A DNA stretch of 64,000 nucleotides from Burkholderiales bacterium RIFCSPHIGHO2_01_FULL_63_240 (GTDB taxonomy: Bacteria; Pseudomonadota; Gammaproteobacteria; Burkholderiales; Burkholderiaceae_C). The position numbers and the translations under genes were made by a program. Below are positions 2,829 to 13,286 of this stretch, in pieces; the stretch's first letter is position 1; each line of letters opens with the position of its first letter. The stretch lies in contig MERU01000007.1 in the NCBI GenBank assembly GCA_001770725.1, positions 108,924 to 172,923 on the forward strand, written 5' to 3'. The notes under the pieces were generated by a model. The model was not told the DNA's origin. It was given only the letters and a program-made list of their open reading frames with translations, and made no database searches.

Positions 2829-4292
2829 TCAGCGGCTGGTGGCCATCAGCTCGCCGGCCAGCTTGCCCACGCGGGCCAGGGCGCGGCGCTCGGCGTCGCC
2901 CCACTTGCCGCCCAGGCCCAGGCGCATGCAGCGCTTGAAGCGGTCGTTGGTGCTGAACAGGCTACCCGGGGCGATGCAGATGTGCTCTTCCAGGCAGGTG
3001 TGAAAAAGCTCGACGGTGTCGACCTCGGCGGGCAGCTCCAGCCACAGGATGTAGCCCCCCGAAGGCGAGGTCATGCGCGTGCCCTTGGGGAAGTGGCGCG
3101 AGATGACGGCGCGGGCCTCGTCCATGCGCGCGGCCACCACGGCGCGCAGCTGCCGGTAGCCGGCTTCGATGCCGGGTTGGGTCAGCAGGTCGGCCAGGGC
3201 GCGCTGCAGCATCACGGTTTCGCTGCCTGAGGTGGATGCCTTCAGGCGTTGCAGCCTTTGCTGGCGCTCGCCTTGACCCGGCGCGGCGATCCAGCCCAGG
3301 CGCAGGCCCGGCGCGATGGTCTTGCTGAAGGAGCCGCACAGCAGCACCTGCCCACCGGTGTCGAAGGACTGCACCGCTCGGCGGCGGTCGTCGTCCTCGC
3401 ACAGGTCGTTGTAGAGCACGTCCTCGATCAACGGCACCTGGTGGCGCGCGACCATCTGCGCCAGGCGCTTGCGCTCGGACAGCGGCATGCTGCAGCCCAG
3501 GGGGTTTGACAGCGTGGGCACCACCAGGATGGCCTTGACGGGCTGGGTGTCGAGCGCCAGTTGCAGCGCGTCGAGCGACAGGCCGGTGCGCGGGTGGGTG
3601 GGGATCTCCAGCGCGCGCAGCCCCAGGCTCTCGAGGATCTCCAGGAAGCCGTAGTAGGTGGGCGACTCCAGTGCCACCACGTCGCCCGGCTTGGTCACCG
3701 TGCGCAGGCACAGCGTGATCGACTCCAGGCAACTGCCCGTGACGGTGATGTCCTCGGCATCGACGTGGCAGCCCATGCGCAGCGCGTGGCGCGCGATGGC
3801 CTTGCGCAGCGACTCGTCGCCGGGGCCGAAGGGGTACTGACACAGCGTGGCGCGGTGGCGCTGGGTGGCGCGGCTGACGGCCCGGCGAACGCGTTCTTGC
3901 GCGAACAGCGCGGCGTCGGGGCAGGCCGCGCCAAAGGAGACGTAGTCGGGGTGGTGGGCCAGGCTCATCATCTTGCCGGCCATGGCGCTGATGCCGACGC
4001 TGACCGAGCGCTTCGGGGGGCGCGAGGTGTCGGGCTCGGGCAACTGGGGCGGGCGCGCGGCGACGAAGTAGCCCGAGCGCGGTCGGGCCTCGATCAGGCG
4101 GGCGTCTTCGAGCGTGCGGTAGGCCTGCACGACGGTGGACTGCGAGACACCGTGCTGGTGGGCCAGGTTGCGCACCGAGGGGATGCGCTCGCCGCGCGAG
4201 AGCGTGCCGGTGCGGATCTGCCGCGCCATGGCGTCGGCGATGCGCAGGTAGAGGGTGTCGGGGGCTTCGGCCAGGGTCTGCATGAGCCCCAT
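2829..4292 (-). CDS. MocR-type regulator (GntR HTH fused to a PLP aminotransferase-like domain)
   Basis: From MGLMQTLAEAPDTLYLRIADAMARQIRTGTL..RIPSVRNLAHQHGVSQSTVVQAY (GntR wHTH), followed by a class-I aminotransferase-like body. The upstream 154 codons of the 641-aa ORF look like non-coding read-through. Confidence 0.85.
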   Translation of the reverse strand: MGLMQTLAEAPDTLYLRIADAMARQIRTGTLSRGERIPSVRNLAHQHGVSQSTVVQAYRTLEDARLIEARPRSGYFVAARPPQLPEPDTSRPPKRSVSVGISAMAGKMMSLAHHPDYVSFGAACPDAALFAQERVRRAVSRATQRHRATLCQYPFGPGDESLRKAIARHALRMGCHVDAEDITVTGSCLESITLCLRTVTKPGDVVALESPTYYGFLEILESLGLRALEIPTHPRTGLSLDALQLALDTQPVKAILVVPTLSNPLGCSMPLSERKRLAQMVARHQVPLIEDVLYNDLCEDDDRRRAVQSFDTGGQVLLCGSFSKTIAPGLRLGWIAAPGQGERQQRLQRLKASTSGSETVMLQRALADLLTQPGIEAGYRQLRAVVAARMDEARAVISRHFPKGTRMTSPSGGYILWLELPAEVDTVELFHTCLEEHICIAPGSLFSTNDRFKRCMRLGLGGKWGDAERRALARVGKLAGELMATSR

Positions 4293-4461
4293 TCTGTATG
4301 GAATGGTGGGCGGTTGACCAGCACAGATGGCGGCGCACACGACCGGCACAGTCCGCGCATGGGGGCGTCTGTGTGGGGGCGACCGGTGCCGGGCTGTGGC
4401 TGTCGGGGTGCGCAGTCGCGGCCTACCTTGGGTGGCCCGACCCGTGCCCGAGGAGGCCCCC

Positions 4462-4785
4462 ATGTCCCACCTGAATCGGCTGCCCGCCTTCGCCCTCATG
4501 ATGCGCCCCTTGCTGCGCGCCTTCCTGCGCCCCAAGCCGACCCGGGGGGCGACCTGCGTGAGCGCGACCCTGCCCGCCGGCCAGGCCGCCCGCCTGACGC
4601 TGCGCCGGGGTGAGACCCTGCTCGTGCGCCAGGGGCGCCTGTGGCTGACCCGCGAAGGTGACCCGGTGGACCATGTGCTGTGGCCGGGGACGGGCCACGT
4701 CGCCTCGGTGCCGCAGGAGGTGGTCATCGAGGCCTTCGGGCCCCAGGCCTGCAACTACGAGCGCCACCGCCTTCGGGGAGCGTGA
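4462..4785 (+). CDS. DUF2917-like small protein, divergent from the MocR regulator
   Basis: ATG at 4462 preceded by GAGGAGG. Sequence ...LRRGETLLVRQGRLWLTREGDPVDHVLWPG... matches the DUF2917 pattern as I recall it. Confidence 0.55.
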   Translation: MSHLNRLPAFALMMRPLLRAFLRPKPTRGATCVSATLPAGQAARLTLRRGETLLVRQGRLWLTREGDPVDHVLWPGTGHVASVPQEVVIEAFGPQACNYERHRLRGA

Positions 4786-4910
4786 TTCCGTTACGCATGT
4801 AAAAGGCGGGATTGCGCCTCATGAATGGGGCGCAGCGGTCGATAGCCTTCTGACCAACCATGCGTGTCTCCATAGGAAATGGGGTTGCGCCCGTCCCGAA
4901 GGAGATCATC

Positions 4911-6476
4911 GTGAATGCAATCAGGTCGGAAATGACCGTCACGGGCCGCCTGGCCCTGGGTTTTGGGGGCGTCACCCTCATCGGCTTGCTGATCGCCGCC
5001 ATCGCGGTGTGGATCATGCAGGACATGGGGAACCGGCTCGACACCATCGCCAAGGACCGCATGGTCAAGGTGGCGAAGTTCAATGAGCTCAAGGGCAACC
5101 TGAGCCTGATCGCGGCGGCGGCACGGGACATCCTGCTGTCCGAGGACCTCGGCTTCGAGAACGAGGCAAGCACCCGCATCCAGCAGCTGCGGGCCCGCAA
5201 CGCCGAGCTGATGGCCGAGCTGGACAAACTCGTGCTCATGCCCGGGGGGCGCGAGTTGCTCCAGGCGATCTCCGACAACCGGCCCGAATACAACCGCCTG
5301 ACCGATCAGGCGATCGAGCTGGACCGCAAAGGCCAGACCGCTGAGGCCGTGCTCATCTTAATGGTGCAGGCCAAGGAGAGGCGCCAGGCCATCTTCAAGG
5401 CGGTCGACGACTCCATCGCCATGCAGCAGGAAGCCACCCTGGCCTTGGTCACCGAATCACATCGTCAGGCCGGCATGGGCGTGATGGGCATGGTGCTGCT
5501 GGGCGTGCTGATGGCGGCCCTGGGCGCCGCCGTGACCTGGTTCACCGCGCGCAACCTGCGCCGTGCACTGGGGGCCGAGCCGCGCGAGCTGGGCGCCATC
5601 GCCCAACGCGTGGCCGACGGTGACCTGCATCCCATCGCCCATGGCCACCAGGCGCCGCAGGGCAGCGTGCTGGCCTCCCTGTCGGACATGCAGACCAAGC
5701 TGGCCACCATCGTCGGTCAGGTGCGCCACAGCAGCGAGAGCATCGCCACAGGGTCCGCCCAGATCGCCACGGGCAACGCCGACCTGAGCCAGCGAACCGA
5801 AGAGCAGGCGAGCAACCTGCAGCAGACGGCGGCTTCGATGGAGCAGATCTCCGGCACCGTGCAGAGCAACGCAGAAACCGCGACCGAGGCCAGCCAATTG
5901 GCCGGCGACGCGGTTTCGGCGGCCGAGCGCGGCGGCGCGCTGATGGGCAACCTGGTCTCGACGATGAAGGACATCTCGCTGGCTTCGGGCAAGATCTCCG
6001 AGATCATCGGCGTGATCGATGGCATCGCCTTCCAGACGAACATCCTGGCGCTCAACGCCGCGGTCGAGGCCGCACGGGCGGGCGAGGAAGGGCGTGGCTT
6101 CGCGGTGGTGGCAGGCGAGGTGCGCACGCTGGCGCAACGCTCGGCCGAAGCCGCCCGCGAGATCCGCACCCTGATCCACACCAACGTGGAGAAGGTCCGC
6201 CTGGGCGAGCAGCAGGCCGACGAGGCCGGCGGCTCCATCGGAGACATCGTCGGTCAGGTGCAGCGCGTCAATCAGATGATCGCCGAGATTTCGAACGCCT
6301 CGGCCCAGCAGGCCACGGGCGTGGGGCAGGTGGGCGATGCCATCACCCAGCTCGACCAGGTGACGCAGCAGAACGCTGCGCTGGTGGAGGAAAGCGCCGC
6401 CGCCGCGGAGAGCCTGCGCACGCAGGCGCACCGCATGGCGGAGATGGTCAGCGTGTTCAGGCTGGCTCAGGCCTGA
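4911..6476 (+). CDS. Methyl-accepting chemotaxis protein
   Basis: GTG at 4911 lies 6 nt after AAGGAGA. TM helix, periplasmic region, second TM helix, HAMP, and the conserved signalling hairpin ([41 protein letters not shown]). Confidence 0.9.
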
Positions 6477-6493: not shown

Positions 6494-7129
6494 TCAGCGC
6501 TTGAGGAAGGGGTTGAACCGGCGTTCTTCCCCGAAGGTGCTCTCGGGCCCGTGACCGGGCGTGAAGGTGATGTCGTCGCCCAGGGGCAGCAGGTGCTGCG
6601 TGATGGCGCGGATCAGGTCGCCGTGGTTGCCGCCGGGGAAGTCGGTGCGACCGATGCCGCCGTTGAACAGCACATCGCCCACGAAGGCGTGGCGCGTGCC
6701 ACCGTGGAAGAACACGACGTGGCCTGGCGTGTGGCCAGGGCAGTGCAGCACCTTCAGCGTCTGCTTGCCGATGCTGACTTCATCGCCATCGTGCAACCAG
6801 CGCGTGGGCGTGAAGGGCTCGGCTTGCGGAAAGCCGAACATCTGGCTTTGCTGGGGCAGGGCGTCGATCCAGAACTGGTCGCCTTCGTGGGGGCCGACGA
6901 TGGGCAAGGCCAGCGTGCGCGCCAGCGTGCCGGTGCCCCCCGCGTGGTCGATGTGGGCATGCGTCAGCCACAGCGCCTTGAGCGTCAGACCGCGCTCTTC
7001 GACGGCCTGCAGCAGCACGCCGATGTCGCCACCCGGGTCGATCAGGGAGGCCTCGTTGGTCTCGTCACACCAGACGAGGGAGCAGTTCTGTTCGAAGGCG
7101 GTGACGGGGAGGGTGAGGCGGTGGAGCAT
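6494..7129 (-). CDS. MBL-fold hydrolase (GloB/YcbL-like hydroxyacylglutathione hydrolase family)
   Basis: THAHIDHAGG metal-binding motif. Start placed at MLHRLTLPV (7129) because the 14 extra codons of the ORF are encoded by the AT-rich inverted-repeat element at 7141-7187. Confidence 0.8.
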   Translation of the reverse strand: MLHRLTLPVTAFEQNCSLVWCDETNEASLIDPGGDIGVLLQAVEERGLTLKALWLTHAHIDHAGGTGTLARTLALPIVGPHEGDQFWIDALPQQSQMFGFPQAEPFTPTRWLHDGDEVSIGKQTLKVLHCPGHTPGHVVFFHGGTRHAFVGDVLFNGGIGRTDFPGGNHGDLIRAITQHLLPLGDDITFTPGHGPESTFGEERRFNPFLKR

Positions 7130-7140
7130 GCCGTCTGCGT

Positions 7141-7187
7141 AGGAATCGGACAACAAAGTTTTAAAACTCAAAACATAGTCTCAAAAC
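7141..7187. repeat. Left terminal inverted repeat of the island
   Basis: AGGAATCGGACAACAAAGT + 20-nt insert + CTCAAAAC. The reverse complement of 13348-13375 is AGGAATCGGATAACAAAGTCTCAAAACC (18/19 plus 8/8 match). Confidence 0.6.
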
Positions 7188-7516
7188 GCTTTGATTTGAA
7201 ACGACTTTTGAGAGCGTAGCACTCTGTGGGCAGAGTGCCCATTCAAATGCGCCACTTCGGCCAGTGATCAGCCCCTTCCCGGTCAGATGGGATTTTCATC
7301 GGATGAAAGCGGGCTGAGGGCCTTTCCAGGCTGGGTGCGGTCATGCCCAGCTGACAGGCACCAAGCTCGTGTCACTGAACAGCTCGGCCACTGCGAGGCG
7401 AACCAAGGTGCATTGCTCCATTCTGGCCCGTCGCGAGTTGAGCAGGTCACAGCGACTTATCAAGATGCTGGGCATGACCTGGTCACCCTGACCGCCTGCC
7501 ACATTGAACATGTCAG

Positions 7517-7558
7517 CATCAAATAAAACGGGGCGTCCGTCTTGAAACGAACGCCCCG
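7517..7558 (-). terminator. Rho-independent terminator after rtcB
   Basis: On the minus strand, stem CGGGGCGT...ACGCCCCG is followed by GTTTTATTTGAT, immediately 3' of the rtcB stop. Confidence 0.7.
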
Positions 7559-7580
7559 GCTAGTGGGCACAATAGATCTG

Positions 7581-8798
7581 TCATCCCTTGACACACACCA
7601 CCTGCTTGAGCGTGTGCACCACATCGACAAGGTCACGCTGAGCCTCCATCACCGCATCAATGTCCTTGTACGCGGCCGGGGTCTCATCGATCACATCCTT
7701 GTCCTTGCGGCACTCGACGCCCTCGGTGGCCGTACGGTGGTCAGCCAGAGTGAAGCGGCGCTTTGCCTCGCCACGGCTCATGACACGACCGGCCCCGTGT
7801 GAGCAACTCTCGAAGCTCTCTGGGTTGCCCTTGCCACGCACGATGTAGCTGCGCGCGCCCATGCTGCCCGGGATGATGCCCAGCTGACCGGCCTTGGCGC
7901 TCACCGCACCCTTGCGGGTCACAAAAATTTCCTCGCCAAAGTGATGCTCGCGCTGCACGTAGTTGTGGTGACAATTCACGGCCTCGATGTGGCTTTGGAA
8001 GTTCTTGCGGATCACGGTCTTGGCAGCCTCGATCACGCGGCGCATCATCACCTCACGGTTGATGGCGGCGAACTTCTGCGCCCAGCCGACGCCGCGTACG
8101 TAGTCACCAAAGTAGCGGCTGCCTTCTTCGAAGTAGGCCAGATCGCGGTCGGGCAGGTTGGCGTTGTTGCGCATCGCATCTTGCTTGGCCAGTTCGATGA
8201 ACATGGTGCCAATGAAGTTGCCCACGCCACGCGAACCTGAGTGCAGCATGAACCACACGGCACCTTGCTCGTCCAGGCAGACTTCGATGAAGTGGTTGCC
8301 CGTACCGAGCGTGCCCAGGTGATTGCGGTTGTTGGTCTTGGCGATCTTGGGATAGTCGCGGCACAGTTCGGTGAACTCGGGCTCCAGTTGCGCCCAGGCC
8401 GTGTCGACCGAACCTGGCACCTTTTGCCAGGCACCTGGATCACGGTTGCCTGGTGCGCGACCATGCGGCACGGCACGTTCGATGGCGGCGCGCAGCGGGC
8501 CCAGGTTGTCAGGCAGGTCTTCAGCTGTCAGCGTGGTCTTGCAGGCCATCATGCCGCAGCCGATGTCCACACCCACCGCAGCCGGGATGATGGCCTTGAT
8601 GGTGGGAATGACCGAACCGACGGTCGCTCCGATACCAAAGTGCACATCCGGCATGGCTGCAATGTGTTTGAACACGACAGGCAGACGGGCCGCATTGATG
8701 AGCTGGCGACGGGCTTCGTCTTCCACGGGCACACCGCGCGTCCACATCTTCACCGGCACGCCACCAAGCGTGTCTTCTTCGATGTAATTCGTTTCCAT
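7581..8798 (-). CDS. rtcB: RtcB-family RNA 3'-phosphate/2',3'-cyclic-phosphate ligase
   Basis: 405 aa. Hallmark motifs AAMPDVHFGIGATVGSV, GCGMMA, GTLGTGNHFIE, HSGSRG and SCSHGAGR. Confidence 0.95.
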   Translation of the reverse strand: METNYIEEDTLGGVPVKMWTRGVPVEDEARRQLINAARLPVVFKHIAAMPDVHFGIGATVGSVIPTIKAIIPAAVGVDIGCGMMACKTTLTAEDLPDNLGPLRAAIERAVPHGRAPGNRDPGAWQKVPGSVDTAWAQLEPEFTELCRDYPKIAKTNNRNHLGTLGTGNHFIEVCLDEQGAVWFMLHSGSRGVGNFIGTMFIELAKQDAMRNNANLPDRDLAYFEEGSRYFGDYVRGVGWAQKFAAINREVMMRRVIEAAKTVIRKNFQSHIEAVNCHHNYVQREHHFGEEIFVTRKGAVSAKAGQLGIIPGSMGARSYIVRGKGNPESFESCSHGAGRVMSRGEAKRRFTLADHRTATEGVECRKDKDVIDETPAAYKDIDAVMEAQRDLVDVVHTLKQVVCVKG

Positions 8799-8862
8799 GA
8801 TTTATCTCATTCTTCCGTAAATGGAGGCGGCATGGCCGCCTCTGTGTAATGCCCTCGCTGAT

Positions 8863-10005
8863 CTAGGCCTTGAGCTTGACCAAGCCATTGAGGACCTGAT
8901 CCAGACCTCCGAACACGGAGATCTTGTCGATGCGCTCGGCAACACGCTCCAGCGTCTCCAGCTCCTTCATGCGCAAAGCGACAGGGTTGCCCTCCATCAC
9001 CTTGGCGGTGTTGAGCAAGGAACGCGTGGCAGCGGTTTCCTCACGGCGACGGATCACGTTGGCCTGAGCAGCCTTTTCGGCTTCAACGACTTGCGCCAGG
9101 ATGGTCTTCATCTCGCCGGGCAGTACGATGTCCTTCACGCCGGCTGTTTCCAGATCGATGCCATAAGCCACCAAGCGTGCCTTGACGTGTGCCATCACGA
9201 CCTCATCGATCACGGTCTTGTTCTCCAGCAGCTCATCGAGCGTGCGCGTACCCACGGCCGATCGCAAACCGAACTGCAGCTCACGGTACAGGTGTTCCGC
9301 GGGCTTTTGCAGCTGCGTGTAGGCCTTGAGTACATCGGTGAAGCGCCACGATGCCGACAGGTTCAGGCGCAGGCCGACCTTGTCCTTGGTGAGGATGTCC
9401 TGGCCGGACACCTCCACCACCTGCAGACGCAAGTCCACCAGCTCGACCGAAACGTTGCGGTTGTACTTCCAGAAGCCGTAAGAGCCCGGCTTCAGAAGCG
9501 AGTCCACCTTGCCGTCGACATGCAGCACGCCCACGCCGTACTCGGGCACCTGCACGGTCAGCACACCAATCAGACCAGCGACCTGGCGTTGACGCATCTG
9601 CGTCTGCGTCAGGCGCGCCACCAGTTCAGCAGGAAGCTCGGCGTGGTTGCTGATGTCCAGCACATCAACCTTGACCTCGTGCAGGCCCTTCCAGTACAGA
9701 CGGCGCGTGGTGGGCGCCAGCAACTCAACCAGTACACCGTTCTCATAGCGCAAGCCCACCTCGGTTTCCTTGAGGTCGACGCGCACGAACTCGGCTTCCA
9801 CCACAGCAGGCTCCTTGGCCATCAAATAGTCGGCCAGGCCGTGCGCGAAGGCGGACTGCTCCAGCGAGAATGTCTCGACACGCACATCGCTCAGTGCCGT
9901 GGCCAGCCAGTGACGGCCAGGCTGCAGCACGCGCTCGAAGTCGCCATTGCGCAGCAGCAGGCCACGCTCGTTCTTTTTGACAGTGAAACGTTTGAATCCC
10001 AACAT
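8863..10005 (-). CDS. SPFH/band-7 (slipin-like) protein with a ~200-aa N-terminal extension
   Basis: Start MLGFKRF at 10005 preceded by AAGGAGAAG. The C-terminal half carries an SPFH core and a coiled region (VVEAEKAAQANVIRRREETAATR...NPVALRMKELETLERVA). Confidence 0.8.
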   Translation of the reverse strand: MLGFKRFTVKKNERGLLLRNGDFERVLQPGRHWLATALSDVRVETFSLEQSAFAHGLADYLMAKEPAVVEAEFVRVDLKETEVGLRYENGVLVELLAPTTRRLYWKGLHEVKVDVLDISNHAELPAELVARLTQTQMRQRQVAGLIGVLTVQVPEYGVGVLHVDGKVDSLLKPGSYGFWKYNRNVSVELVDLRLQVVEVSGQDILTKDKVGLRLNLSASWRFTDVLKAYTQLQKPAEHLYRELQFGLRSAVGTRTLDELLENKTVIDEVVMAHVKARLVAYGIDLETAGVKDIVLPGEMKTILAQVVEAEKAAQANVIRRREETAATRSLLNTAKVMEGNPVALRMKELETLERVAERIDKISVFGGLDQVLNGLVKLKA

Positions 10006-10240
10006 GGGCTTCTCCTTCTTGTTTGTATGAGGGTGCCGATACAGCACTGGCTGCGGACAAGGAAGGCCTTGGCTCAGGCATGGCGGATTCGCGGTGTGTC
10101 TTCCTCCCAGATCGACACGTCGCTTGGCCACCTGCGCGAGCCACGCGTTTTCCTTGCACAAGCCACCAGCGCTGACAGATGGCAAGCCATCTGCGTTCGG
10201 CGGAGGTCTTTCGACCGGCTTTTTGGCAACCTTCGCAGGG

Positions 10241-10314
10241 TTGTTGGTACGGGAATCGAACCCGTGACAGACGCATTACAAGTGCGTTGCTCTACCCGAC
10301 TGAGCTAACCAATG
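10241..10314 (-). tRNA. tRNA-Thr(UGU)-like, with non-pairing 1:72 and 2:71
   Basis: Hand fold: D arm GCTC/GAGC, anticodon arm ACGCA-CTTGTAA-TGCGT, T arm ACGGG-TTCGATT-CCCGT. Acceptor CATTGGT/ACCAACA pairs at only 5 of 7 positions. No encoded CCA. Confidence 0.6.
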
Positions 10315-10516
10315 GGTGGCTGCTTGGGAATCGAACCCATCACCGTTGCCGGCGCTGACCACAGACAGCCCAATCAACCGTTTCCAACAGACGCGGCATG
10401 CACCGTGACAACAGGCTTGAACCTGGCCACAGCGCACCGGCGGGGCGGGCTTTCACCCAAACCCCTGACCTGTGAGCGCCCGCCTTTCACGGCAGACTCT
10501 TTGGCGCTTGAACCTC
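10313..10516 (-). ncRNA. Structured non-coding segment ending in a tRNA-like 3' module (T-arm + acceptor strand + CCA)
   Basis: 3' end reads ATGGG-TTCGATT-CCCAA-GCAGCCA-C-CCA (10313-10340). Internal T-arm-like hairpin CAGG-TTCAAG-CCTG (10412-10425). Two GTGAAAG hairpins. No local 5' tRNA half; the only complement (GTGGCTG) is at 10553-10559, inside the HNH 3' end. Confidence 0.3.
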
Positions 10517-11092
10517 TCAGTTCAAGCGCGATCCTTTTGGCAGGCGCGAAGCCAGCCACTCGTGTACATCGGCCCGGATGTGCCTGCCTTGCAGCAGGAA
10601 GTCTTCGAATCGACTGGGCACATAGGGCAGGTACAGCAATGGCATGCGGGCTTCCTCTGGCGTGCGGTTGGCCTTGGCAGCATTGCAGCCAGGGCAGGCC
10701 GTCACCAGATTCATCCACGATGTGGCACCGCCCCGAGAGGCCGGCACGATGTGCTCGCATTGCAGTACGCCCTCAGAGAAGCGATCACCGCAGTAGGCAC
10801 AAACACACCGGTCACGCCGAAAGAGCTTCAACCTGTTCAGCGACGGCGCAACCTCAAACAGGTTGATGCGCGAAGCGCCGTTGAGCGCCATGATGGGGAA
10901 GATTTCCATCACGGACGGGCGACCCGTTCGGGCATTGACGCCGCCCCGCAGACGGCGCAGCGGTCCGTCGCCGTCGACCCATGCCACCGAGGCACTGGCC
11001 AGATGGATGGCGGCCTGTTCGACCGTGATCCAGGCTTGTGGCGTGCCTTGAATGTCCAGTTGCAGGACATGCGTTGAGGTACTCGGTGACAT
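10517..11092 (-). CDS. HNH endonuclease (McrA/COG1403-like, ~191 aa)
   Basis: Start MSPSTS at 11092 follows AAGGAGGG by 6-7 nt. HNH core CAYCGDRF...CEHIVPASRGG..WMNLVTACPGCNAAKANRTPEEA. Confidence 0.85.
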   Translation of the reverse strand: MSPSTSTHVLQLDIQGTPQAWITVEQAAIHLASASVAWVDGDGPLRRLRGGVNARTGRPSVMEIFPIMALNGASRINLFEVAPSLNRLKLFRRDRCVCAYCGDRFSEGVLQCEHIVPASRGGATSWMNLVTACPGCNAAKANRTPEEARMPLLYLPYVPSRFEDFLLQGRHIRADVHEWLASRLPKGSRLN

Positions 11093-11119
11093 GGGGAGCC
11101 CTCCTTTCATGGGCAGGTG

Positions 11120-11272
11120 TCAGTGCATGGTGTCGTTGGATCGGCGCAGCTCACGCTTGAGGCGTTGCCGCTCTTGCTTGTTGTTGGGTTGATGATTGCC
11201 TGCTTTGCGTTGCATGGCAGGGGCGACGAGTGGGTTCCTCGGCTTGGAGGTGCCCCGTTTGGGTGTTCTCAT
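11120..11272 (-). CDS. Hypothetical 50-aa highly basic peptide upstream of the HNH gene
   Basis: ATG at 11272 follows AAGGGA. Sequence MRTPKRGTSKPRNPLVAPAMQRKAGNHQPNNKQERQRLKRELRRSNDTMH. No homology recognised; could be non-coding. Confidence 0.3.
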   Translation of the reverse strand: MRTPKRGTSKPRNPLVAPAMQRKAGNHQPNNKQERQRLKRELRRSNDTMH

Positions 11273-11306
11273 GACAAGATCCCTTGCGAACGCGTGGCGG
11301 AACGAA

Positions 11307-11383
11307 TGGCGTCTCGTACGGGAATCGAACCCGTGTTCCGACATTGAAAGCGTCGTGTCCTAGGCCAGCTAGACGAACGAGAC
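11307..11383 (-). tRNA. tRNA-Glu(UUC), CCA encoded
   Basis: GTCTCGT-TC-GTCT-AGCTGGCCTA-GGAC-A-CGACG-CTTTCAA-TGTCG-GAAC-ACGGG-TTCGATT-CCCGT-ACGAGAC-G-CCA. Resembles bacterial tRNA-Glu (TTCGTCTAG...GGAC). Confidence 0.9.
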
Positions 11384-11433
11384 GTAGATGGCTGTGGCTT
11401 CAATCACGCCAGTAGTCATGGCGTTGGCTGCCG

Positions 11434-11642
11434 TCAAAAGCAGCCCGATGTCAGGCAACAGCGCTTGAAATGATTTGGTCGATCCGCAAGGGCATGGGTC
11501 GTTGCGTCCCAGCTTCTCGTGCAGGTACTTGTCACCATGCACGATGCGCTGACCACGCTTGACGCCTGTCTCAGACGGATAGCCCTTACGACGCTTGCTC
11601 GTGACCTCGAAAGCAAGCCTGTTCTTGGCGGTTGAATTTCAT
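11434..11642 (-). pseudogene. Small SEC-C-motif protein gene disrupted by two +1 frameshifts
   Basis: RBS AAGGAG plus ATG at 11642 opens an 18-codon frame. The next frame reads ...[55 protein letters not shown] third frame finishes [10 protein letters not shown]. Removing one A from an AAA run and one T from a TTT run restores a 68-aa ORF. Confidence 0.55.
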
Positions 11643-11725
11643 TTTTGACTCCTTGTTGAGTTGCCCCTGTGAACGGCCAGGTGCCTACCGGATGACAGCG
11701 ATATGCGATGCCCAATGCGCTTGGG

Positions 11726-11796
11726 GGTGACCGGCCGGAGTCGAACCGGCACCATCGGAATCACAAACCGAGGCTCTGCCATTGAGCTACGGCCAC
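11726..11796 (-). tRNA. tRNA-His(GUG)-like lacking the encoded G-1
   Basis: GTGGCCG-TA-GCTC-AATGGCA-GAGC-C-TCGGT-TTGTGAT-TCCGA-TGGT-GCCGG-TTCGACT-CCGGC-CGGTCAC-C. Nucleotide -1 is T. The trailer is CCCAA, with no exact CCA. Confidence 0.75.
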
Positions 11797-11826
11797 ACCC
11801 AAGCGCACTGGGCGTTGAAATGGTTG

Positions 11827-11899
11827 TCTCGGAGGACGGGTTCGAACCGCCGACCTGATGCTCCCAAAGCACCCGCGCTACCAACTGCGCTACACCGAG
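11827..11899 (-). tRNA. tRNA-Pro(UGG)
   Basis: CTCGGTG-TA-GCGC-AGTTGGTA-GCGC-G-GGTGC-TTTGGGA-GCATC-AGGTC-GGCGG-TTCGAAC-CCGTC-CTCCGAG-A. C1-G72 and A73 as in bacterial tRNA-Pro. One U-U mismatch at 6:67. No encoded CCA. Confidence 0.8.
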
Positions 11900-11906
11900 A
11901 AACAAC

Positions 11907-11984
11907 TGGCGCCTCCTGCACGACTCGAACGTGCGACCCCTGGCTTCGTAAACCAGTGCTCTGAATCCACTGAGCTAAGGAGGC
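11907..11984 (-). tRNA. tRNA-Arg(ACG), CCA encoded
   Basis: GCCTCCT-TA-GCTC-AGTGGATTCA-GAGC-A-CTGGT-TTACGAA-GCCAG-GGGTC-GCACG-TTCGAGT-CGTGC-AGGAGGC-G-CCA. Confidence 0.9.
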
Positions 11985-12002
11985 AAAGCTGCAGAAACTG
12001 AT

Positions 12003-12078
12003 TGGTGCCGCAGGAGGGATTCGAACTCTCGACGCCCGGCTCTTCAGGCCGGCGCTCTACCAACTGAGCTACCGCGGC
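12003..12078 (-). tRNA. tRNA-Phe(GAA) with G37, CCA encoded
   Basis: GCCGCGG-TA-GCTC-AGTTGGTA-GAGC-G-CCGGC-CTGAAGA-GCCGG-GCGTC-GAGAG-TTCGAAT-CCCTC-CTGCGGC-A-CCA. A-C mismatch at 52:62. Position 37 is G. Confidence 0.8.
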
Positions 12079-12092
12079 ATGGGAATAGGTTG

Positions 12093-12168
12093 TGGCGCTT
12101 CGTGCGGGAGTCGAACCCGCGGCTTCCGGCTAGACAGGCCGGCACTCTGGCCACTGAGTTAACGAAGC
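12093..12168 (-). tRNA. tRNA-Asp(GUC) with U37, CCA encoded
   Basis: GCTTCGT-TA-ACTC-AGTGGCCA-GAGT-G-CCGGC-CTGTCTA-GCCGG-AAGCC-GCGGG-TTCGACT-CCCGC-ACGAAGC-G-CCA. Anticodon stem is identical to the neighbouring tRNA-Phe. Confidence 0.8.
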
Positions 12169-12401
12169 AAGGTATCCACTTCGGCTGTGCCCAAGCGCGA
12201 GCACTCATGGACGGCAGTCCAGAGTCGATGTCTCGCTGCATGTGGATCCGGGCCCGGACCACACACATCCCTTGCCACCGACACCAGCGTTACGCGTGTG
12301 ACTCGGAGTGCAAGGACACACCCGAAGTGGAGCGAACGGCGAACCATTCGCTACTTGTGCGAAATGTCTGCTTGCGTGTAGGCAAGACATCTCGCGGCAA
12401 A

Positions 12402-12414
12402 TTGTTAAAGAGCG
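12402..12414 (-). promoter_or_regulatory. rrn-type boxA (NusB/NusE antitermination element) in the leader of the tRNA array
   Basis: The minus strand reads CGCTCTTTAACAATTT. The E. coli rrn boxA, as I recall it, is TGCTCTTTAACAATTT. Confidence 0.65.
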
Positions 12415-12429
12415 ACACCTGTGAGGTGC

Positions 12430-12447
12430 GGCGATCCGTTGATCGCC
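12430..12447 (-). promoter_or_regulatory. boxB-like hairpin just upstream of boxA
   Basis: Minus strand GGCGATC-AACG-GATCGCC is a perfect 7-bp stem, 15 nt 5' of boxA. The boxB-then-boxA order matches rrn leaders. Confidence 0.5.
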
Positions 12448-12480
12448 AGGGTGCGTAACGAGCACGCAGTGAAGGTGGTG

Positions 12481-12523
12481 AGGAAAAGCGAAGAGGCCCG
12501 GATCCTTTTGGAATCCGGGCCTC
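12481..12523 (-). terminator. Intrinsic terminator or attenuator between the 66-aa ORF and the boxB/boxA leader
   Basis: Minus strand GAGGCCCGGAT(T)CC-AAAA-GGATCCGGGCCTC is followed by TTCGCTTTTCCT. Confidence 0.55.
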
Positions 12524-12553
12524 TGCTTGAGAGAGCTAGGAGGGGCGTGCGCC

Positions 12554-12754
12554 TTACGCGTCAACGACTCCCTCACCCGGTTGCACCTGATCCTCATGTC
12601 CACGGATGTACGCATCCCGCTTGGCATGGGATGGTTCAAACTGGAACGCGATCAAGCACGGGCGGCTGCCATACAACATCGCGGCAGCCGCACGCACGAA
12701 CGCGCTCTGGCCCATGAGGGGCAGGCGGTTGGTGGTGTTCAGTCTGGATTTCAC
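12554..12754 (-). CDS. Hypothetical 66-aa protein, divergent from the HTH regulator (Cro-like position)
   Basis: GTG at 12754 lies 6 nt after AAAGGA, and the ORF is followed by the hairpin terminator. No family recognised. Confidence 0.4.
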   Translation of the reverse strand: MKSRLNTTNRLPLMGQSAFVRAAAAMLYGSRPCLIAFQFEPSHAKRDAYIRGHEDQVQPGEGVVDA

Positions 12755-12835
12755 GATGTGTCCTTTGAAAATCTGCGTCAGTTGTTTGGTTTGATCTAGC
12801 CAAGCTTCATCTCGAAACTTGACAATGGATGAAAT

Positions 12836-12852
12836 GGTAAAGACTCTTTACC
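12836..12852. promoter_or_regulatory. 17-bp perfect palindrome (candidate operator)
   Basis: GGTAAAGA-C-TCTTTACC, in the divergent intergenic region. Confidence 0.45.
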
Positions 12853-12883
12853 GAGCTGTCAACGCCCTGCGACAATGGTGCTA

Positions 12884-12900
12884 TTGCCAATTTGTGGCAA
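12884..12900. promoter_or_regulatory. Palindrome TTGCCA-N5-TGGCAA abutting the regulator ATG (candidate operator)
   Basis: TTGCCAATTTGTGGCAA, whose last A is the A of the ATG at 12900. GACAATGG also occurs twice, 50 bp apart (12821 and 12871). Confidence 0.4.
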
Positions 12901-13286
12901 TGCTCACACCAGCCATCTTGAACAACATCACCGTGACACGCCGGCGTAACGCGCTGGCGCTATTCCAAAGCTTTGCAGAAGAAGCCTTGGCTTCGGGCAC
13001 GCCTCCCAAAGGGCTGGAGCAATCGTTCGCGCAAAAGCTGGAAATTTCCCCCAGCATGTGGAGTCAGATCAAGTCGTCCAGGCCTATCGGCGACAAGATG
13101 GCCAGGCAGATTGAACAGCACTGCATCAAGCCACCTGGGTGGCTTGATGAAGAGAGGGAGAGCGTCGGTCTCACGCCAGCGGAGCAACAGTTCCTGGCAT
13201 TGGCCTTACAGGCGTGGCGGTCCACTAACACGGCTGGCCGCAAGGCATTGCGTGAGCACCTTAAGAGCAGCTTGGCCAAGACCTGA
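12900..13286 (+). CDS. Phage-repressor-like (Cro/CI, XRE-type) HTH regulator
   Basis: ...FAQKLEISPSMWSQIKSSRPIGDKMARQIEQHCIKPPGWLDE is a typical XRE HTH plus the GWLD tail. An alternative TTG start at 12819 would place two palindromes inside the coding sequence. Confidence 0.7.
   Translation: MLTPAILNNITVTRRRNALALFQSFAEEALASGTPPKGLEQSFAQKLEISPSMWSQIKSSRPIGDKMARQIEQHCIKPPGWLDEERESVGLTPAEQQFLALALQAWRSTNTAGRKALREHLKSSLAKT

Follow-up and report, generated by a model that had tools for sequence, protein, structure and literature searches.

Why should a cluster of tRNA genes on a mobile island be preceded by a signal whose normal place is in ribosomal RNA (rRNA) operons? The question is raised by a 64,000-nucleotide (nt) stretch of contig MERU01000007.1 from Burkholderiales bacterium RIFCSPHIGHO2_01_FULL_63_240 (the whole stretch is hereafter called the window), in which a boxA, the proposed binding site of NusB and NusE, stands upstream of an array of tRNAs. 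Modification of RNA polymerase through boxA and the Nus factors has long been assigned to rRNA operons and to lambdoid phages, with suhB, some ribosomal protein genes and CRISPR arrays as the few further targets. A first-pass annotation of the window had proposed that an rrn-type boxB/boxA antitermination leader, possibly captured from an rrn operon, drives the array. In this study, the leader was compared with its relatives, with the rrn leaders of the host clade and with viral tRNA arrays. As read from sequence, a conserved and, by prediction, exposed boxA heads a horizontally acquired tRNA cluster, although the usual task of this RNA signal is to let RNA polymerase read through rRNA operons. 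The features on which this answer depends are the following.

12399-12414, minus strand: boxA, reading CGCTCTTTAACAATTT (12414-12399), with the core GCTCTTTAACAA at 12413-12402; proposed NusB/NusE binding site.
12093-12168, minus strand: tRNA-Asp (12168-12093), the first tRNA after the leader.
11724-12168, minus strand: tRNA array Asp(GTC), Phe(GAA), Arg(ACG), Pro(TGG), His(GTG), found by ARAGORN and scoring 60-67 bits with the Rfam tRNA family.

By sequence, strand, predicted accessibility and conservation, the motif is a bona fide rrn-type boxA. CGCTCTTTAACAATTT is identical to boxA of Escherichia coli rrnB at 15 of 16 bases, and the 12-nt core is the same; in the K-12 rrnB leader (NC_000913.3) boxA reads TGCTCTTTAACAATTTA within the wider context ...gcggcacTGCTCTTTAACAATTTAtcagacaatcTGTGTGGGcactcgaag..., and the E. 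coli sequence given in the annotation proved to be correct. The functional boxA consensus GYTCTTTAANA (Baniulyte et al., 2017; PMC5725501) is matched in the window only by GCTCTTTAACA at 12413-12403, on the same strand as the tRNAs, and the core GCTCTTTAACAA likewise occurs once on the two strands of the window, where 0.03 occurrences with at most one mismatch are expected. The leader from 12470 to 12169 (302 nt) has a predicted minimum free energy (MFE) of -140.1 kcal/mol (z = -5.5), which 0 of 100 shuffled sequences reached, in agreement with the annotated structured leader of roughly 230 nt after boxA, which does run directly into tRNA-Asp. In both the MFE and the centroid predictions boxA is unpaired, and it is the only long unpaired stretch. 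Furthermore, the core is the same 12-mer as in the rrn leaders of the host clade, and thus the host Nus machinery should recognise the island boxA.

In species-representative genomes, the exact sequence CGCTCTTTAACAATTTGCC was found at four Burkholderiales loci, all of them just 5' of tRNA arrays that differ in composition. The family was recovered with a boxA-independent anchor taken at the 3' end of the leader, and a more specific anchor gave 86 loci, all from Burkholderiales (Rubrivivax, Piscinibacter, Aquabacterium, Rhizobacter, Roseateles, Albitalea and Scleromatobacter) apart from a few mis-binned contigs; counts across these homologues are not phylogenetically independent. Three island contigs (L029, L074 and L076) had been binned into Chitinophaga, Chitinophagaceae and Steroidobacteraceae metagenome-assembled genomes, for which a binning error is most likely, rather than transfer. 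Among viral contigs the Burkholderiales island family gave 0 matches.

Among 83 distinct complete leaders, boxA is perfect in 50, carries one or two mismatches in 11 (mostly GCTCTTTGACAA) and is absent from 22, which are mostly 'short' leaders without the whole module of boxA and hairpins A-D described below. The annotation had tied its proposal to conservation among homologous islands, and most of these (61 of 83) do keep a perfect or near-perfect boxA, as do 61 of the 64 leaders of at least 100 nt. On the two strands of the family loci, 667 kb in all, the consensus is present 50 times at the leader position, where 0.02 occurrences are expected, and once elsewhere. In 61 homologues the predicted mean pairing probability is 0.09-0.33 at boxA nucleotides 3-11, compared with 0.8-0.99 in the flanking stems, and boxA is constant while the adjoining stems vary by compensatory changes. 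Directly 5' of boxA the 61 leaders have 49 distinct 24-mers, nearly all of which can fold as a hairpin, with strand pairs such as CCACCG/CGGTGG, CCGCCG/CGGCGG and GCGCCG/CGGCGC. In addition, the median number of downstream tRNAs is 6 with boxA (n=31) and 0.5 without it (n=14; Mann-Whitney p=2e-4), and several of the loci that lack boxA are decayed arrays with tRNA remnants only.

Whether the element is an entire rrn leader or only its boxA can be judged from the anatomy of the region between the upstream terminator and tRNA-Asp, all on the minus strand.

12452-12468, minus strand: hairpin A, TGCGT-loop-ACGCA, from a single-sequence fold.
12430-12447, minus strand: hairpin B, the 'boxB' of the annotation, GGCGATC (12447-12441)-AACG (12440-12437)-GATCGCC (12436-12430), read from the sequence and folded.
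12416-12428, minus strand: hairpin C, CACCT-CAC-AGGTG, directly 5' of boxA, from the fold and covariation in relatives.
12359-12395, minus strand: hairpin D, 37 nt, beginning 6 nt after boxA, from the fold; its apical CGGUACUGGCCG is at least 90% conserved in relatives.
12328-12351, minus strand: acceptor-stem minihelix GCGAATGG-TTCG-CCGTTCGC-TCCA, 24 nt, a relic of tRNA-Gly(GCC).
12175-12330, minus strand: conserved structured RNA, 156 nt here and typically 141 nt, with helices P1-P5, from an 86-copy alignment.

The minus-strand stretch that holds hairpin B, hairpin C and boxA reads ...CCTGGCGATCAACGGATCGCCGCACCTCACAGGTGTCGCTCTTTAACAATTTGCCGCGAG..., and the order that the annotation had given, a hairpin GGCGATC-AACG-GATCGCC followed after 15 nt by boxA, was read again at 12447-12399. 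The 15-nt spacer (GCACCTCACAGGTGT, 12429-12415) itself folds into hairpin C, which by position is the true boxB equivalent; in most long leaders hairpin B takes the form GCGATC-GATG-GATCGC, and at the position of hairpin A relatives carry a hairpin whose sequence differs. Hairpins B and C (12447-12416) fit the description of an rrn boxB, which is weak evidence, since the boxB of rrn leaders is not defined by its sequence and is of much less significance there (PMC12360218).

For comparison, rrn operons of Sphaerotilaceae-type Burkholderiales were retrieved by their 16S signature, yielding 81 distinct leaders. Where it is recognisable, their boxA is GCTCTTTAACAA, GTTCTTTAACAA or GCTCTTTAAAAA at 133-198 nt before 16S, and 47 of the 81 have a boxA within one mismatch of GCTCTTTAACAA. 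Two tandem hairpins stand directly before it and a boxC, AAGCGTGGGCG, begins 14 nt after it, the same distance from the 12-mer as in E. coli rrnB. The general layout of hairpins leading into boxA thus resembles that of the host rrn leaders. However, in the window the position 14 nt after boxA is occupied by hairpin D, with no TGTGTGGG-like boxC. The GT-rich tracts GGTGTGTCC and TGTGTGTGG, which the first-pass annotation had called boxC-like, are present in the leader, 80 and 136 nt after boxA, and make up the 5' sides of helices P1 and P3 in the structured RNA; both the spacing and the place in helices rule them out as boxC. The suggestion of capture from an rrn operon also found no support: in a blastn-short comparison with the 81 clade leaders the sole match was 11-15 nt of boxA, and profile searches with nhmmer between rrn and array leaders, in both directions, gave nothing significant past about 19 columns around boxA, which the rrn-leader profile aligned at less than 5.2 bits. 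These comparisons give no evidence that an rrn leader was copied into the island, and on its sequence, the window leader, which has neither boxC nor homology past boxA, fails as a complete rrn antitermination leader.

The same signal recurs in phages. IMG/VR contigs were scanned for GCTCTTTAACAA followed by the T-arm motif GGTTCRANTCC at 40-70 or 71-100 nt, which returned 45 and 12 contigs, respectively (57 contigs with 36 leader types); in control scans the reverse complement of boxA gave 0 matches and its mirror image five, against 45 for boxA. The 57 contigs have GC contents of 32-57%, are unrelated to the Burkholderiales family and hold arrays of up to 25 tRNAs. In 23 of the 34 types with a downstream tRNA, the first tRNA begins 12-18 nt (mode 14-16) after the 12-mer, and 24 of the 36 types have no tRNA within 1 kb upstream. 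In many of them boxA is closely preceded by a hairpin and by a consensus sigma70 promoter, as at locus L318 (7981, minus strand), where TTGACT-17-TATAAT and a hairpin TTGAGA...TCTCAA are followed by boxA and, 14 nt later, by tRNA-Gln. No rRNA genes were found in a sample of 14 viral loci, and two viral contigs that were checked carry phage-type genes, including those for a primase, a Dda-like helicase and NAMPT. Since these phage leaders consist of a promoter, a hairpin and boxA with tRNAs replacing rRNA, they are a strong argument for an element that works at the level of RNA and in a strand-specific way, and they suggest that mobile tRNA arrays borrow the rRNA transcription machinery of the host.

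With regard to the reach of this recurrence, a search of INPHARED for cultured relatives of two viral boxA-led arrays showed similarity at the tRNA level only, and the tRNA region of a T5-like coliphage has one sense-strand match to the consensus, which is not above chance (0.45 expected). The viral spacing of 14-16 nt from boxA to the first tRNA (loci L315-L371) equals the boxA-boxC spacing of the E. coli and Sphaerotilaceae rrn leaders, and the G-rich 5' acceptor strand of the first phage tRNA may stand in for boxC. At one of these loci, L320, a DUF2828/DUF7788 protein (PHROG 850, 'RNA-binding protein'; 3658-5091, plus strand) is encoded just upstream of the boxA-led array and an open reading frame (ORF) with a tyrosinase domain (6626-8254, plus strand) lies inside it. 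Taken more broadly, an rrn-type boxA could characterise mobile tRNA arrays in general, a trait that has not been described so far; it would have been placed independently in Burkholderiales islands and in many unrelated phages and would hijack the machinery of rRNA transcription and folding without an N-like protein. We regard this generalisation as evenly poised between true and false. Its Burkholderiales version may combine the boxA-array module with a leader-peptide/terminator unit and a structured RNA of about 150 nt that forms a new class.

How polymerase reaches boxA in the window depends on an upstream unit with the following parts.

12819-13286, plus strand: divergent ORF, 128-155 amino acids (aa) depending on the choice of start, from the ORF list and a gene call in identical metagenome contigs.
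12834-12862, minus strand: sigma70-like promoter TTGACA-17-TACCAT, from a promoter scan (10 of 12 matches).
12836-12852, minus strand: palindrome GGTAAAGAGTCTTTACC (12852-12836) in the promoter spacer, with GTAAAGAsTmTTTAC at the same place in relatives.
12554-12754, minus strand: small ORF, 66 aa, with N-terminus MK(S/T)RH.. and C-terminus ..HPGEGSA*; candidate leader peptide.
12482-12524, minus strand: intrinsic-terminator-like hairpin (14 bp, 9 GC; 12524-12492) and T-tract, from a terminator scan.

Neither the divergent ORF nor the small ORF matched Pfam or NCBIfam. By its position the divergent ORF is a candidate regulator of the island promoter, and together with the palindrome it probably represents a repressor and its operator. 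The small ORF is open in 50 of 56 relatives at lengths of 29-72 aa, its stop lying 22-44 nt (mode 29) before the terminator stem and, as a separate observation, within a small hairpin; GAGGCCCGGAnnCCnnnAGGnTCCGGGCCTTTTT is found upstream in 83 of 87 distinct leaders, the remaining four ending at a contig edge. The small ORF and the terminator look like a candidate leader-peptide attenuator that would gate entry into the tRNA array. The leader had been annotated as driving the array; however, no promoter is visible beside boxA, and the conserved small ORF and the strong terminator stand immediately upstream. Between terminator and boxA neither the scan nor inspection by eye found a promoter, sigma54-like and sigmaE-like sequences seen by eye being unconvincing, and the only sigma70-like promoter is the one at 12862-12834, about 400 nt upstream of boxA. 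In several relatives, some with intact tRNAs behind (L082 and L276), only 11-21 nt separate the terminator from the structured RNA, which leaves no room for a separate promoter, so that the array would be reached by read-through from the upstream promoter.

We consider it reasonably probable that boxA, GCUCUUUAACAA in the leader RNA, is a functional Nus-loading site that makes polymerase processive over the tRNA array. Transcription would start most likely at the operator-bearing promoter, and polymerase would first pass the small ORF and the terminator; boxA would act only on polymerases already beyond the latter. In the nascent RNA, GCUCUUUAACAA would be kept single-stranded between stable hairpins and would be bound by the host NusB-NusE(S10) dimer, which would nucleate a Nus complex (NusA, NusG and SuhB) on polymerase before the untranslated array is reached. 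The modified polymerase would be faster and more processive and would withstand Rho on the long ribosome-free transcript, while the tether between leader and polymerase may aid the ordered folding and processing of tRNA-Gly or its relic, the element of about 150 nt and the tRNAs. Expression would thereby extend to the distal tRNAs and to the HNH, SPFH and RtcB genes, on the putative Nus-dependent read-through transcript of 4.9 kb that the annotation had proposed. This proposal is backed by the identity of boxA, its conservation, its predicted accessibility, the association with array length and the independent recurrence in phages. In other systems, recruitment of NusB and NusE at boxA nucleates Rho-resistant complexes (reviewed in PMC12360218), and in CRISPR arrays a 5' boxA favours the expression of the distal spacers (Stringer et al., 2020, as cited in PMC7862264). 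Most likely, boxA would serve to load NusB and NusE, with an array transcript that is processive or correctly folded as the outcome.

Several points weigh against this proposal. The association with array length (p=2e-4) ignores phylogeny. Among the 22 of 83 relatives without boxA are Piscinibacter sakaiensis 201-F6 and the closest relatives of the window island, L036 and L291, which have the same seven intact tRNAs and no module; boxA is therefore not essential and is evolutionarily dispensable. In housekeeping tRNA operons of the host clade boxA was found in 0 of 3 usable cases, too few for a conclusion. From the only recognisable promoter, boxA is separated by a strong intrinsic terminator, on which a complex formed at boxA cannot act. 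Highly structured tRNAs may be intrinsically poor substrates for Rho. Finally, according to the discussion in PMC5725501, the Nus factors are not needed against Rho at the rRNA loci of E. coli, with stress on context dependence, which makes the anti-Rho part the weakest of the model and a role in folding or processing a serious rival that cannot be separated by sequence alone.

According to this rival, which we consider unlikely yet the best placed of the alternatives, boxA recruits Nus factors for co-transcriptional folding and processing and not for antitermination: the leader tether would help the long-range helix P1 to form and would stop adjacent tRNAs from mispairing, as has been proposed for the 16S leader-trailer helix. 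Beyond the rRNA loci just mentioned, PMC5725501, PMC4807359 and PMC10250234 link Nus factors to 30S biogenesis; boxA in the window lies just 5' of a conserved RNA closed by a long-range helix of 16-17 bp, and the first phage tRNA, at 14-16 nt, has the spacing of boxC, which is part of the RNase III helix in rrn leaders. However, the element of about 150 nt folds locally (140 nt) and is present without boxA in 22 relatives, boxA tracks array length, which fits processivity better, and the boxA of CRISPR arrays promotes distal spacer expression (as cited in PMC7862264).

It is less probable still, and in our view quite improbable, that the motif has been kept for a reason other than Nus binding, as a DNA site (a -10-like TAACAAT or an operator) or as an RNase site in the 5' leader of a tRNA, with a coincidental likeness to boxA. 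No other promoter is visible between terminator and array, and the fixed distance of 14-16 nt to the first phage tRNA could reflect a processing signal; however, the match extends over all 12 positions of the host rrn boxA, beyond a -10-like hexamer, and has no -35 partner at the proper distance. The phage copies of the motif follow complete sigma70 promoters, and the enrichment of the sense orientation alone (45 against 0 for the reverse complement) points to a strand-specific signal at the RNA level.

Very little weight is left for a negative element of the suhB type, at which Nus binding would promote Rho termination or attenuate the array and so silence costly foreign tRNAs. Enhancement of Rho termination through boxA is documented for suhB and hisG, and long tRNA arrays elsewhere are normally silent (PMC8421152), but at suhB the mechanism is repressed translation of an ORF that lies only a few nt further on, whereas only tRNAs follow here and in the phages, where boxA comes after consensus sigma70 promoters that suggest high expression; in the island, a dedicated terminator and operator already provide silencing. 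We give as little credence to the view that the boxA module is a functionless leftover of an rrn leader, brought in as the array took shape. This is conceivable because tRNA genes occur within and behind rrn operons and because two hairpins followed by boxA resemble the host leaders, but it is contradicted by the lack of homology besides boxA, by an invariant boxA between stems that drift and covary, by recurrence in 36 unrelated phage leader types and by the loss of boxA that accompanies array decay.

Several other parts of the leader are of interest in their own right. The conservation of CGGUACUGGCCG at the apex of hairpin D far exceeds the needs of a plain stem-loop. The minihelix reads GCGAAUGG-UUCG-CCGUUCGC-UCCA as RNA and is an internally deleted tRNA-Gly(GCC) that has kept the acceptor stem and CCA; at the same position most relatives have an intact tRNA-Gly(GCC) with acceptor strands GCGGATG/CATCCGC-TCCA. 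Insertions in the region of the anticodon arm of this tRNA, about 10 nt in L043, L056, L074 and L103 and roughly 90 nt in L042, cause ARAGORN to report tRNA-Ala or an undetermined tRNA, and to miss the tRNA altogether in L042; they may be intron-like inserts or signs of decay. The structured RNA is closed by helix P1 (CCACUUCGGGUGUGUCC/GGGCACAGCCGAAGUGG, 16-17 bp) around three to four inner helices (P2-P5), and its 86 distinct Burkholderiales copies align well, with 39 pairs predicted by RNAalifold, 12 of which show compensatory changes. In about eight relatives it follows the terminator without intact tRNAs behind, and it therefore appears to be an independent module. An Rfam search of the leader, at the gathering score and at E<=10, returned tRNA only, together with chance-level matches outside the leader, and the RNA of about 150 nt is a candidate for a new class of non-coding RNA without an Rfam family.

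Beyond the array, the putative operon continues on the minus strand, its distal part spanning 7581-11383.

11307-11383, minus strand: tRNA-Glu (11383-11307), distal part of the putative operon.
10517-11110, minus strand: HNH endonuclease (11110-10517; E=3e-12).
10239-10314, minus strand: tRNA-Thr (10314-10239), distal part of the putative operon.
8863-10185, minus strand: SPFH/Band 7 protein (10185-8863; Band_7 E=7e-29).
7581-8798, minus strand: RtcB RNA ligase (8798-7581; E=5e-128).
7519-7558, minus strand: terminator-like hairpin (13 bp, 9 GC; 7558-7529) and TTTTATTTGA, from a terminator scan; end of the putative operon.

Between tRNA-His and tRNA-Glu, still inside the array, an ORF of 57 aa (11369-11542, minus strand) has a SEC-C/SWIM-type metal-binding motif. 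The GC content of the island segment (roughly 6-14 kb) is about 60%, compared with about 70% for the genome; with seven tRNAs, HNH and RtcB on compositionally foreign DNA it has the make-up of an L-array-type island, the window copy being below the size of roughly 20 genes used in some L-array definitions, while relatives reach 21 or more.

If boxA does govern free-standing tRNA arrays in islands and phages, mobile translation-related cargo would join the Nus regulon as a whole class, and the escape of long ribosome-free tRNA transcripts from Rho, with expression to the distal end, would be explained. It would also bear on the counter-measures of phages to tRNA-targeting defences and on stress-induced tRNA arrays. 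The natural variants with and without boxA and the cultivated hosts (Piscinibacter, Rubrivivax and Albitalea) would offer access to the role of boxA in vivo outside essential rRNA operons, where anti-Rho action, elongation speed and RNA folding are in dispute. Cultivated carriers with boxA are Piscinibacter caeni MQ-18, P. defluvii SH-1, Rubrivivax rivuli KYPY4 and strain AAP51, whereas in P. sakaiensis 201-F6 and Albitalea terrae S-16 boxA is missing or degenerate. The analysis further provides a candidate family of structured RNA and a candidate leader-peptide attenuator.

Of the known systems, the rrn leader (boxB-boxA-boxC, with NusA, NusB, NusE, NusG, SuhB and S4) shares with the window the boxA core, the order of hairpin and boxA and a long untranslated structured RNA behind. 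The window differs in that no rRNA follows, there is no boxC at 14 nt and no homology outside boxA, a small ORF and a terminator take the place of a strong promoter directly 5', and the element is dispensable and lies in a low-GC island. In the lambdoid nut site (boxA-boxB and the N protein), a mobile element likewise uses a host NusB/NusE site, and a conserved hairpin, in the window hairpin D, comes after boxA. However, the window boxA has the full rrn consensus, compared with the weaker lambda CGCTCTTA, it is also preceded by hairpins, and hairpin D, at 37 nt, has no boxB-like loop. No N-like arginine-rich protein was recognised, and the small ORF is unlikely to be such a factor for hairpin D, since it persists in relatives in which both hairpin D and boxA are missing.

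The boxA sites of the suhB/rpsJ type (Baniulyte et al., 2017; PMC5725501) are also outside rRNA operons and were identified by the same GYTCTTTAANA; they lie at most 50 nt from a start codon, repress translation and promote Rho termination, whereas no ORF follows the window boxA. The survey in that paper explicitly left out non-coding RNAs. Supernumerary foreign tRNA arrays with HNH and RtcB neighbours are known as L-arrays (the Anabaena trn operon, PMC8421152; the TrcR repressor, PMC10272220), and, as in the window island, a sigma70 promoter holds an operator-like repeat for which a dedicated regulator is to be expected. These papers mention no boxA, no leader peptide with terminator and no RNA of about 150 nt ('antitermin' occurs 0 times in PMC8421152), and no publication that connects tRNA arrays, clusters or operons with boxA or with antitermination was found in a search that left most subscription journals outside. 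The logic proposed here is shared by CRISPR arrays with a boxA (Stringer et al., 2020, eLife 9:e58182, as cited in PMC7862264), in which an rrn-type boxA heads a long, repetitive, untranslated array and is linked to long arrays; the cargo here differs in consisting of strongly folded tRNAs processed by RNase P and RNase Z and not of crRNAs, and the evidence here is comparative. In this company, the signal and the machinery of the boxA-led tRNA array are known ones, and it is the class of mobile untranslated cargo that is new.

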